Below the pieces are notes generated by a model that was given only the letters and a program-made list of their open reading frames with translations, had not been told where the DNA came from and did not search any database. From Escherichia phage UB, in the sequence record MH383160: 64,000 nt of DNA. One strand, 5' to 3'. The translations under genes were made by a program, and so were the position numbers. The stretch's first letter is position 1, and every line of letters begins with the position of its first letter. Positions 40,530 through 41,168 of this stretch are shown piece by piece.

Positions 40530-40679
40530 TTAAACTTCTTTCGGGTTGCGATATGTGATAGCGTTCGGGTACATTTGTTTAATGTTATTCCATGCCTGGT
40601 TAACATTGTAACCACTTGAGCGAATCAGTTGGTTACTACCGACACCTTGAAACACTACTTCGAATAAGAATTCTTTCAT
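40530..40679 (-). CDS. small hypothetical protein
   Basis: 49-aa ORF (MKEFLFEVVF...) with GAGGTG RBS; below ORF-track cutoff; last gene of 4-gene operon. Confidence 0.4.
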   Translation of the reverse strand: MKEFLFEVVFQGVGSNQLIRSSGYNVNQAWNNIKQMYPNAITYRNPKEV

Positions 40680-40849
40680 GCTTTCACCTCGCGATCTGCT
40701 TTACCTTTACGCCAGGACATTACTAATTGTTCGCGTTGCCATAAGTCGAGTGATACAAAAAGTTTTGCGGTATCACTTTTAGGATACTCTCCAGTAGTAC
40801 CTAACCGATAAAACAGATCTTTCAGTACTGATAATTCTACTTGAATCAT
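40676..40849 (-). CDS. small hypothetical protein
   Basis: 57-aa ORF (MIQVELSVLK...) with AGGAG RBS; ATGA overlap with downstream gene. Confidence 0.4.
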   Translation of the reverse strand: MIQVELSVLKDLFYRLGTTGEYPKSDTAKLFVSLDLWQREQLVMSWRKGKADREVKA

Positions 40850-40938
40850 TTTATTACTCCTGATTGCGTTAATACTTCTACAATTGCATGAATGATCATA
40901 AGTACAGCTAAAACAATAATCATCGGATTCATTTGCAT
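40846..40938 (-). CDS. putative small hydrophobic (membrane) peptide
   Basis: 30-aa ORF MQMNPMIIVLAVLMIIHAIVEVLTQSGVIK; AAGGAG RBS 8 nt upstream. Confidence 0.35.
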   Translation of the reverse strand: MQMNPMIIVLAVLMIIHAIVEVLTQSGVIK

Positions 40939-40955
40939 AAGCTGTACTCCTTCTA

Positions 40956-41168
40956 TTAATCTTTCAGCCAATGATCTTGAATGAATTTTTCACAGAATCC
41001 CTGTTTCATGGATTCTAACAGGCGTTCGCGGTGAGCGGCGGCATATTGCTCAGTACTATGCGTTACGCCAGGCTGATAACGTGATACCCCATCCGGTCCG
41101 ATGTATTGTACATCCCACGGTTTTTCGTTAGTATCAGACCATTTACGAACGATTAGTTGACCTTGCAT
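40956..41168 (-). CDS. hypothetical protein
   Basis: ORF track 70 aa; GAGGAA RBS. Confidence 0.55.
   Translation of the reverse strand: MQGQLIVRKWSDTNEKPWDVQYIGPDGVSRYQPGVTHSTEQYAAAHRERLLESMKQGFCEKFIQDHWLKD

Follow-up and report, generated by a model that had tools for sequence, protein, structure and literature searches.

Do the shortest open reading frames (ORFs) in a promoter-dense region of Escherichia phage UB encode peptides that matter in themselves? The question arises from a 64,000-nt stretch of this phage (sequence record MH383160; "the window" denotes this whole stretch), in which two minus-strand groups of small genes, here called unit 1 and unit 2, contain ORFs for hydrophobic peptides of 30 and 29 amino acids (aa), respectively. 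The pattern of substitutions among relatives makes it very probable that both ORFs are real genes, and their predicted products are credible single-helix membrane peptides. The window belongs to an Asteriusvirus jumbo coliphage, a RaK2-like phage of the PBECO4/121Q/G17/slurp01 group. In a megablast search, the closest match of both units is vB_EcoM_E9.1 (99.8%; E9.1 below), and ~40 Escherichia and Salmonella jumbo-phage records of 310–386 kb match both units.

Two units of small genes and the selection acting on them

The sequence-only reading of the window had described four translationally coupled ORFs of 70, 30, 57 and 49 aa behind a promoter at 41218..41245. All four ORFs lie where that reading placed them, and the promoter matches the σ70 consensus at 12 of 12 positions. 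Unit 1 comprises the following features (SD, Shine–Dalgarno sequence):

41218..41245, minus strand: promoter TTGACA-16-TATAAT, preceded by an A-rich tract and conserved in 10 relatives
41186..41205, minus strand: 8-bp leader stem-loop GGGGAGAA-AUGA-UUCUCCCC between −10 and SD, resembling the promoter-early stem-loops discussed below; −13.9 kcal/mol, z −3.2
40956..41168, minus strand: 70-aa soluble protein, phrog_13428, with homologues in many RaK2-like jumbo phages
40846..40938, minus strand: 30-aa hydrophobic peptide MQMNPMIIVLAVLMIIHAIVEVLTQSGVIK, preceded by an AAGGAG SD of its own; in its distribution, accessory and genus-restricted
40676..40849, minus strand: 57-aa protein, phrog_10572, predicted to fold as a three-helix bundle; its start overlaps the 30-aa stop as ATGA
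40530..40679, minus strand: 49-aa protein, phrog_37188, joined to the 57-aa ORF by an ATGA overlap
40491-40518, minus strand: terminator-like 12-bp hairpin, −19.9 kcal/mol, z −6.0; the G17 record annotates a terminator here
40483-40511, minus strand: promoter TTGACT / TATTAT, with its −35 box inside the unit 1 end hairpin

The proposed coupling holds at the 30-to-57-aa and 57-to-49-aa junctions, both of which are ATGA overlaps, whereas the 70-aa and 30-aa ORFs do not overlap but are separated by a gap of 17 nt, with the AAGGAG SD positioned 8 nt ahead of the 30-aa ATG. The leader stem-loop has five close copies in the window, compared with 0.09 expected, and two diverged copies in addition. 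At the far end of the unit, the segment 40483..40518 is, judged by its fold, a terminator-like element and would act as a composite terminator/promoter.

The second unit, which had been described at 44546..44922 with products of 50, 29 and 45 aa, was recovered as described, with an ATGA overlap followed by a TAAATG junction:

44973..45000, minus strand: promoter TTGCAA-16-TATAAT, 10/12 match
44941..44960, minus strand: leader stem-loop with the same sequence as in unit 1, z −3.6
44770..44922, minus strand: 50-aa basic protein, phrog_7119, net charge +7, with homologues in RaK2/K64-1 and rV5-like phages
44684..44773, minus strand: 29-aa hydrophobic peptide MKSLAYYSSALVGAMIAALLVTYLFFMVI, kept in 35 records; its start overlaps the 50-aa stop as ATGA
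44546..44683, minus strand: 45-aa protein, phrog_29913, strongly basic with a net charge of +10; its ATG directly follows the 29-aa stop (TAAATG)
44521-44540, minus strand: terminator-like hairpin with an embedded TTGACT-17-TATTAT promoter (44509-44537)

The 29-aa ORF is not preceded by an SD of its own. For the 50-aa ORF, an alternative ATG lies 10 codons upstream, in the loop of the leader hairpin; the AGGAGA SD favours the start listed above over this upstream ATG.

To assess selection, we aligned both units across ten relatives with 85–99.9% nucleotide identity and summed Nei–Gojobori counts, leaving CMSTMSU, an 'UNVERIFIED' record with many single-base indels, out of the reliable genomes. 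In the called frame, the ratio of nonsynonymous to synonymous differences per site (pN/pS) is 0.11, 0.09, 0.30 and 0.05 for the 70-, 30-, 57- and 49-aa ORFs of unit 1, and 0.06, 0.20 and 0.32 for the 50-, 29- and 45-aa ORFs of unit 2, sums that come from few, recombining and non-independent haplotypes, which tempers the case they make. In the other two frames, pN/pS is ~0.4–4.6, or undefined for want of any synonymous difference. The variable columns of both units cluster at third codon positions, and the sole indels in the reliable genomes, of 3 nt in the 57-aa gene and 6 nt in the 45-aa gene, keep the frame. Specifically, 5 of the 7 changes in the 30-aa ORF are synonymous (binomial P = 0.007), as are 7 of the 12 in the 29-aa ORF (P = 0.010). 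These patterns indicate that all seven ORFs are under purifying selection, and in the called frame only.

The two tiny genes differ in how they are distributed. The 29-aa peptide occurs in 35 records at 86–97% identity (tblastn), and all of its changes are conservative, being hydrophobic-for-hydrophobic or S/T replacements (S3T, L4F, LV to VI, G13V, M15L and A18V). An intact 30-aa peptide was found by tblastn in 19 records, with 93–100% identity, and its gene is missing in ~40% of relatives. Turkey5 and A4 carry in the same slot a 45–48%-identical allele, MHMNPFIVVIAIMMAVQAVLEYLSKAGVI, with 62% nucleotide identity, which retains the MxMNP start, the hydrophobic core and the C-terminal GVI, and keeps polar residues 17, 21 and 24 on one face of the helix. 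The slot occurs in three states, namely the ORF with an SD only (18 records besides the window), a promoter cassette only (fEgEco12, Ecwhy_1, WPEC3 and CMSTMSU), and a cassette with its own promoter together with the divergent ORF (Turkey5 and A4); the borders of these states coincide exactly with the cassette. On this distribution, the 30-aa peptide is classed as a genus-restricted, accessory ORFan.

The tiny ORFs had also been called missed by the ORF track. This is not so in public annotation, where relatives list them, unevenly, as hypothetical proteins. The 30-aa product is deposited as QBO61518 (G17_00022), AIT14188 (121Q_298) and UniRef A0A097EXQ2, and its exact sequence is found on 32 contigs; it is annotated in E9.1, G17, 121Q and SHEFM2K, and unannotated in slurp01, phAPEC6 and Ecwhy_1. 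The 29-aa product is listed as phAPEC6 gp520c and fEgEco12 g022; it is annotated in these two phages, WPEC3 and SHEFM2K, and unannotated in 121Q, slurp01 and Ecwhy_1. The 70-, 57- and 49-aa genes are called in all deposited records examined.

Membrane character and possible roles of the peptides

The best Kyte–Doolittle mean over 19 residues (KD19) is 2.67 for the 30-aa peptide and 2.59 for the 29-aa peptide, compared with at most 0.63 for each of the other five products. Summed insertion energies on the Hessa scale are −0.6 kcal/mol for the 30-aa peptide, −2.9 kcal/mol for the 29-aa peptide and +2.2 kcal/mol for the Turkey5 allele. The 29-aa peptide is, by prediction, a clear C-terminal transmembrane (TM) anchor with an S9/G13/A17 spacing. 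A scan of the window for SD-preceded ATG ORFs of 20–65 aa with KD19 of at least 2.2 returned the 30-aa ORF and a plus-strand 45-aa ORF at 63443-63580, and nothing else; the latter, in a glycine-codon-rich region, is likely to be an out-of-frame artefact. The scan could not pick up the 29-aa ORF, whose start relies on coupling and not on an SD.

A peptide with the same placement is found in more distant phages. RaK2 and K64-1 carry, directly after the homologue of the 50-aa protein, an unrelated 38-aa hydrophobic ORF, MIVKVLTTIIQYCIITGVAFVLAVAIVFSTVIVLGNIS, with a KD19 of 2.69 (850-966 of the retrieved RaK2 stretch, NC_019526; 450-566 of the retrieved K64-1 stretch). Overlaps of its ATG with the upstream stop, and of its stop with the next start, couple it to both neighbours; K64-1 annotates it as gp442, and the RaK2 RefSeq record leaves it unannotated. 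Judged from this arrangement, the 38-aa ORF is a positional analogue of the 29-aa peptide of the window. In addition, the Muenster terminal repeat holds annotated 42- and 35-aa proteins, each with a single TM domain, beside homologues of the 49- and 57-aa proteins, and, by our reading of the Muenster sequence, a homologue of the 70-aa protein lies beside them as well. The RaK2/K64-1 and Muenster cases suggest that tiny TM peptides are a recurrent, non-homologous feature of the early region.

Five of the seven products of the two units fall in PHROG families, all of unknown function. Both alleles of the 30-aa peptide match NCBIfam NF033695 (KPN_01571, a transporter-adjacent 30-aa family) from the internal MNP onward, with scores of 17.5 and 19.7 bits (E = 2.5e-3 and 5e-4) against a curated cut-off of 35. 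The match needs the residue order, as 0/10 shuffled controls matched anything. Membership was rejected, since the scores are below the cut-off and the neighbours of the 30-aa gene are the 70-aa and 57-aa phage proteins, with no transporter gene adjacent; the match is a hint only. The 29-aa peptide has no match in NCBIfam, and our literature search found no account of these peptides, of NF033695, or of small RNA (sRNA) in RaK2-like phages.

The soluble partners are more widespread. Homologues of the 70-aa protein occur in jumbo phages of Salmonella, Klebsiella, Erwinia, Serratia, Yersinia and Xanthomonas, typically 10–18 kb from the record start; an IMG/VR search with this protein returned 121Q only. 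Homologues of the 57- and 49-aa proteins are found in RaK2, K64-1 and Muenster, within the predicted terminal repeat, and those of the 50-aa protein in RaK2 and rV5-like phages. Word-indexed searches with the 57-, 50- and 70-aa queries returned near-identical relatives only and no Pfam domains, and the 50-aa protein matches Pfam SAM_SMF weakly, at 20.1 bits against a cut-off of 27. AlphaFold2 predicts three helices for the 57-aa protein with confidence (predicted local distance difference test, pLDDT, 84) and gives a weak β3-α2 model of the 70-aa protein (pLDDT 66). Foldseek found no match in the PDB with E ≤ 0.001 for either model, so the partners give no functional clue.

Both units lie ~8–12.7 kb within a direct terminal repeat (DTR) of ~21 kb. 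The DTR of fEgEco12 is 20,993 bp long, as confirmed with PhageTerm and restriction digests (PMC13070987); by mapping, position 1 of fEgEco12 corresponds to ~53,219 of the window and the inner repeat end to ~33,500. Records that cover both repeats contain two copies of the locus. Between 38 and 47 kb, the gene strand carries ~20 promoters with a match of at least 10/12, including 8 perfect 12/12 promoters spread over 39.2–44 kb. In phage CBB, RpoD-like promoters that have UP elements precede short ORFs (PMC5259590), and by this analogy the promoter-dense stretch is presumed to be the early region. Its consensus σ70 promoters and its position in the DTR fit early expression driven by the host RNA polymerase. 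No tRNAs were found in the window. Two genes between the units, as annotated in relatives, plausibly have host-takeover functions of the early type:

42291-42548, minus strand: DksA/TraR-like C4 zinc-finger protein, 85 aa
41871-42227, minus strand: GNAT acetyltransferase, 118 aa

The pre-early genes of T5 lie in long terminal repeats; we know of no two-step DNA transfer in the RaK2-like group. The window resembles the T5 pre-early region and the CBB early region (PMC5259590) in having small genes of unknown function behind host-type promoters, in or near a DTR of ~20 kb.

On balance we favour the view that the 30- and 29-aa ORFs code for single-helix inner-membrane micro-proteins, most likely modulators or tethers at the host membrane. 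In both units, a near-consensus σ70 promoter with an A-rich tract, an 8-bp G/C-clamped leader stem-loop and an SD precede three or four small linked genes, and each unit ends in a strong hairpin carrying the −35 box of the following promoter. The near-consensus promoters and the layout of the units suggest that the host RNA polymerase would transcribe them once the DNA enters. Coupling would then yield the peptides in a fixed ratio with their soluble neighbours, and the peptides, given their hydrophobicity, would insert in the inner membrane, where they may act on a host membrane protein or localise their basic soluble partners. The 29-aa peptide may serve a genus-wide function, while the 30-aa peptide may be an exchangeable accessory module that is added, swapped or removed by recombination between promoter cassettes.

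Several observations weigh against this view. For the 30-aa product, the proposal of a single TM helix is supported by a hydrophobic core of ~19 residues and by its KD19, whereas the insertion energy is borderline and the core holds His17 and Glu21. Across variants, position 21 is E, K or V, and an interfacial or oligomeric helix is as possible for this sequence as a classical TM span; the peptide may also span the membrane with the help of a partner. In ~40% of relatives the 57-aa partner occurs without the 30-aa peptide, an argument against an obligate pair. The 50-aa homologue is not accompanied by a TM ORF in KP13-7 or in the rV5-like phage EmilHeitz. Furthermore, Pfam, PHROGs, NCBIfam, PADLOC and the PDB linked the peptides to no characterised protein, whether of an exclusion, a holin or a toxin family, and a phmmer search of 1.84 billion representative proteins with the 30-aa peptide found only the peptide itself.

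The peptide sequences might themselves be irrelevant, if the ORFs were chance or spacer frames that stay untranslated or act only as coupling leaders. In favour of this are the very small size of both ORFs, the missing SD of the 29-aa ORF, and the dispensability of the 30-aa ORF in ~40% of relatives, where the promoter cassette serves expression of the 57-aa gene. A spacer, however, needs no hydrophobic helix and no purifying selection specific to the called frame. The limitation of substitutions to conservative hydrophobic ones, the 48%-identical allele that retains length, motif and hydrophobic pattern at 38% nucleotide divergence, and the unrelated TM peptide at the equivalent position of RaK2/K64-1 also speak against a spacer, and we regard this explanation as very unlikely. 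If the sequences do matter, the peptides may be toxins, similar to type I toxins or holins, that depolarise the membrane or form pores in it, for host shutdown or lysis timing. TisB is a 29-aa peptide, and peptides of the TisB class resemble those of the window in size and in their hydrophobic helix. The polar stripe of the 30-aa peptide (H/Q17, E21, T/S24) is conserved on one face, as for an oligomeric pore, and the sequence of the 29-aa peptide has a small-xxx-small spacing at S9, G13 and A17. Unlike type I toxins, however, the window peptides lie in coupled operons behind strong promoters and have no identified antisense RNA partner; no conserved antisense promoter was found, and the sole nearby plus-strand site (40410-40437) lies in an AT-rich repeat. 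Toxins of this sort, made from strong constitutive-type early promoters, would abolish the membrane potential when the long jumbo-phage cycle has only just begun. Small hypothetical proteins, the acetyltransferase and the DksA-like protein surround the peptide genes, with no endolysin or spanin among them, and the early-type σ70 promoters, together with this lack of endolysin/spanin linkage, do not fit a holin. Toxin and holin families gave no match either, and a toxin or pore appears quite improbable.

Superinfection exclusion, in which early inner-membrane peptides would stop the DNA entry of later phages in the manner of T4 Imm and Sp or P22 SieA, is suggested by the early-type promoters, by the membrane character of the peptides, and by a 30-aa gene that varies between strains as competition genes should. 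The known examples are larger, however: T4 Imm has ~83 aa and P22 SieA is multi-pass, whereas the window peptides have 29–30 aa and one helix. Known exclusion proteins sit in the inner membrane (PMC10883804, PMC11436027), and the window peptides are like T4 Imm/Sp and P22 SieA (PMC10883804) in being predicted inner-membrane, strain-variable and accessory. Comparison with PHROGs, Pfam and PADLOC shows no similarity to any exclusion protein, and the sequence holds nothing that separates exclusion from other membrane roles; we consider exclusion unlikely. The absence of the 30-aa gene from ~40% of relatives is consistent with an accessory host-interaction role and is not specific to exclusion. 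In the broader form in which the sequence-only reading had put it, host-membrane interference or exclusion by these peptides is plausible. With ~30 residues and a single hydrophobic helix, the peptides also resemble AcrZ, KdpF, MgtS and the NF033695 family, and in a distinctly speculative reading they would be the phage version of such bacterial micro-regulators of membrane machines. The 30-aa peptide would then be a diverged relative or mimic of the KPN_01571 family that docks on a host transporter in the first minutes, and the basic 50-aa protein with its coupled TM peptide would be a two-part effector. If this were true, the TM peptide would tether a nucleic-acid-binding partner to the membrane, in a pair that is conserved in position, with unrelated peptides, between Asteriusvirus and RaK2/K64-1. 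Sequence data cannot separate exclusion, depolarisation, tethering and transporter mimicry; modulation or tethering at the host membrane is the reading that we retain as the most likely.

Promoter cassettes, a conserved element and Chi sites

The block of promoter and leader recurs across the window, and the hairpins at unit ends contain the next −35 box. Similar blocks, termed promoter-early stem-loops (PeSLs), are known from the T4-type phages RB49/phi1, PST and nt-1 (Arbiol et al. 2010, PMC2839356; Comeau et al. 2014, PMC4122927). A PeSL consists of an AT-rich tract, a σ70 consensus, a G/C stem-loop that varies in position and lies past the −10 box or across the −35 or −10 box, an SD and an ATG, and PeSLs are located in hyperplastic regions, where they flank indels (PMC2839356, PMC4122927). 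The window cassettes likewise have a near-perfect σ70 promoter with an A-rich AAAAA(GTACT) upstream, and a stem-loop that either follows the −10 box (GGGGAGAA/TTCTCCCC) or overlaps the −35 box (AAAGGGATTGAC/GTCAGTCCCTTT). The stem letters vary by cassette while the pairing is kept (GGGGAA/TTCCCC, ACGGGG/CCCCGT, and GGGAAATTAG/CTAATTTCCC in Muenster), and the cassettes finish with the SD and start codon of the next gene.

As with PeSLs, many copies are concentrated among small ORFan genes, and ORF-sized insertions, deletions or replacements occur at exact cassette borders between close relatives. Specifically, window cassettes border the variants of the 30-aa slot and those of a 107-aa gene:

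41252-41575, minus strand: 107-aa gene, adjoining the unit 1 promoter on its upstream side

The 107-aa gene is present in E9.1, G17, slurp01, fEgEco12 and others, and absent from 121Q, phAPEC6 and SHEFM2K; on this comparison it is a second ORF-sized indel with a promoter cassette at its border. Unlike PeSLs, the window cassettes lie inside a long direct terminal repeat, and their dominant stem-loop, part of the transcribed leader, lacks a U-tract and is therefore unlikely to terminate transcription. Furthermore, the window belongs to a RaK2-like Asteriusvirus and not to the T4-type lineage, so the cassettes are analogous to PeSLs and not demonstrably homologous. In its predicted organisation, the window cassette works like a PeSL without being a member by descent.

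Two further observations concern the cassettes. The minus-strand segment 40300-40392 has a TTGCAT-16-TATAAT promoter, a G4/C4 hairpin (ACGGGG...CCCCGT) and an AGGAG SD, followed by ATA in place of the ATG of a paralogous copy at 37030-37140; another perfect promoter (40276-40249) intervenes before the next ORF, and the segment looks like an empty or decayed cassette. At many promoters, an AGTACT palindrome flanks the −35 box on both sides, AAAAAGTACTTGCAA...AGTACTGTATAAT, ~20 bp apart, as at 44973-45015 and 41218-41260 (minus strand); cassettes of Muenster and RaK2 have it too. A phage regulator may use this palindrome as its operator, or it may simply belong to the promoter consensus.

Each unit is followed by a conserved promoter-proximal element:

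40395..40476, minus strand: copy after unit 1, core CCCACCGGGTGCATAAATGTATC at 40439-40461, with a Chi octamer inside (40423-40430)
44415..44502, minus strand: copy after unit 2, core at 44460-44482, with a 5′ stem-loop UGAG/CUCA
34914-34936, 37167-37189, 40439-40461, 42796-42818, 44460-44482 and 50392-50414, minus strand: the six cores in the window

The core CCCAYAGGGTGC-N5-TGTATC occurs six times in the window, compared with 0 expected, and the invariant RNA core reads CCCAYAGGGUGC-N5-UGUAUCUAU. The element is also multi-copy in RaK2, GAP32, CBB, fHe-Yen9-04, Serratia BF and metagenomic contigs. Its position is nearly fixed: 30 of 31 copies lie 21–29 nt past the −10 box of a TTGACN-17-TAnnnT promoter. 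A covarying 5′ stem of 3–5 bp with an A-rich loop ends 3–5 nt before the core; it is found in 14 of 15 distinct long 5′ segments and is built from at least 9 stem sequences. RNAalifold on a MAFFT alignment left this variable stem out of register, and the stem was assessed by shuffling; the summed minimum free energy of the 5′ segments is −54.5, compared with −15.6 ± 5.1 for shuffles (z −7.7). Single-sequence folds of the element are not significant. Several copies in other genera are followed by a strong intrinsic terminator, which would give an RNA of ~90 nt. The window has no Rfam match at gathering level, and Rfam holds no family for the element, with only noise around it.

In E9.1, WPEC3, SHEFM2K and Muenster, the element is annotated as a small coding sequence (CDS; '..AHRVxxCIY..'), a reading that we rejected because there is no conserved start or SD, the upstream frame differs between copies, the distance to the promoter is fixed and the stem covaries. 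The annotated frames over the element, with TTG/CTG starts and no SD (30 aa in E9.1), are probably mis-annotations of a non-coding element:

40400-40492, minus strand: annotated CDS over the element
44436-44549, minus strand: annotated CDS over the element

Reading the core as a T4 MotA box was dropped as well, since the spacing, judged by eye, is unsuitable. From its sequence features the element looks like a phage sRNA or a leader, with antitermination or R-loop priming as candidate roles.

The window holds 13 copies of the E. coli Chi octamer GCTGGTGG, compared with 0.4 expected, and 9 of these sites are on the gene strand inside the repeat:

34871, 35093, 36672, 40423, 41691, 43154, 46713, 51774 and 52623, minus strand: Chi
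52635, 63043, 63298 and 63556, plus strand: Chi

Other octamers of the same composition are not enriched. Eight relatives have 5–6 Chi sites per ~10 kb, all on the gene strand, compared with ~0.1 expected. At 52623-52642, an inverted pair of Chi sites 4 nt apart forms a perfect hairpin, CCACCAGC-ACAA-GCTGGTGG, ~0.6 kb from the mapped terminus (~53,219) and at the switch from minus- to plus-strand Chi. With the repeat present at both ends, the distance from a terminus to a correctly oriented Chi would, by orientation and terminus mapping, be ~0.6 kb on one side and ~1.4 kb on the opposite side. P1-like and T5-like phages are known to have Chi sites clustered close to terminal repeats (PMC12315714, PMC3784561), and our literature search found no report of such clustering in Asteriusvirus. 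Outside the repeat, three plus-strand Chi sites ~255 bp apart (63043-63563) lie in a GGT/GCT-rich coding region and are probably a by-product of repeat codons.

Meaning for RaK2-like phages

The early regions of phages are full of tiny ORFan genes, hardly any with an assigned function. Here, two of the smallest, of 29–30 codons, show the substitution pattern of protein-level selection, and their deposited annotation is uneven. They are already in databases as hypothetical proteins, and small membrane proteins of phage early operons are a familiar class, so the result is unsurprising. The three states of the 30-aa slot (ORF, none and divergent allele) provide natural, isogenic-like comparisons, which makes the peptides practical candidates for expression and for toxicity or exclusion screens. 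PeSL-like cassettes in a 21-kb repeat, polarised Chi sites at both ends and a clade-wide RNA-like element may aid the annotation and engineering of RaK2-like phages.

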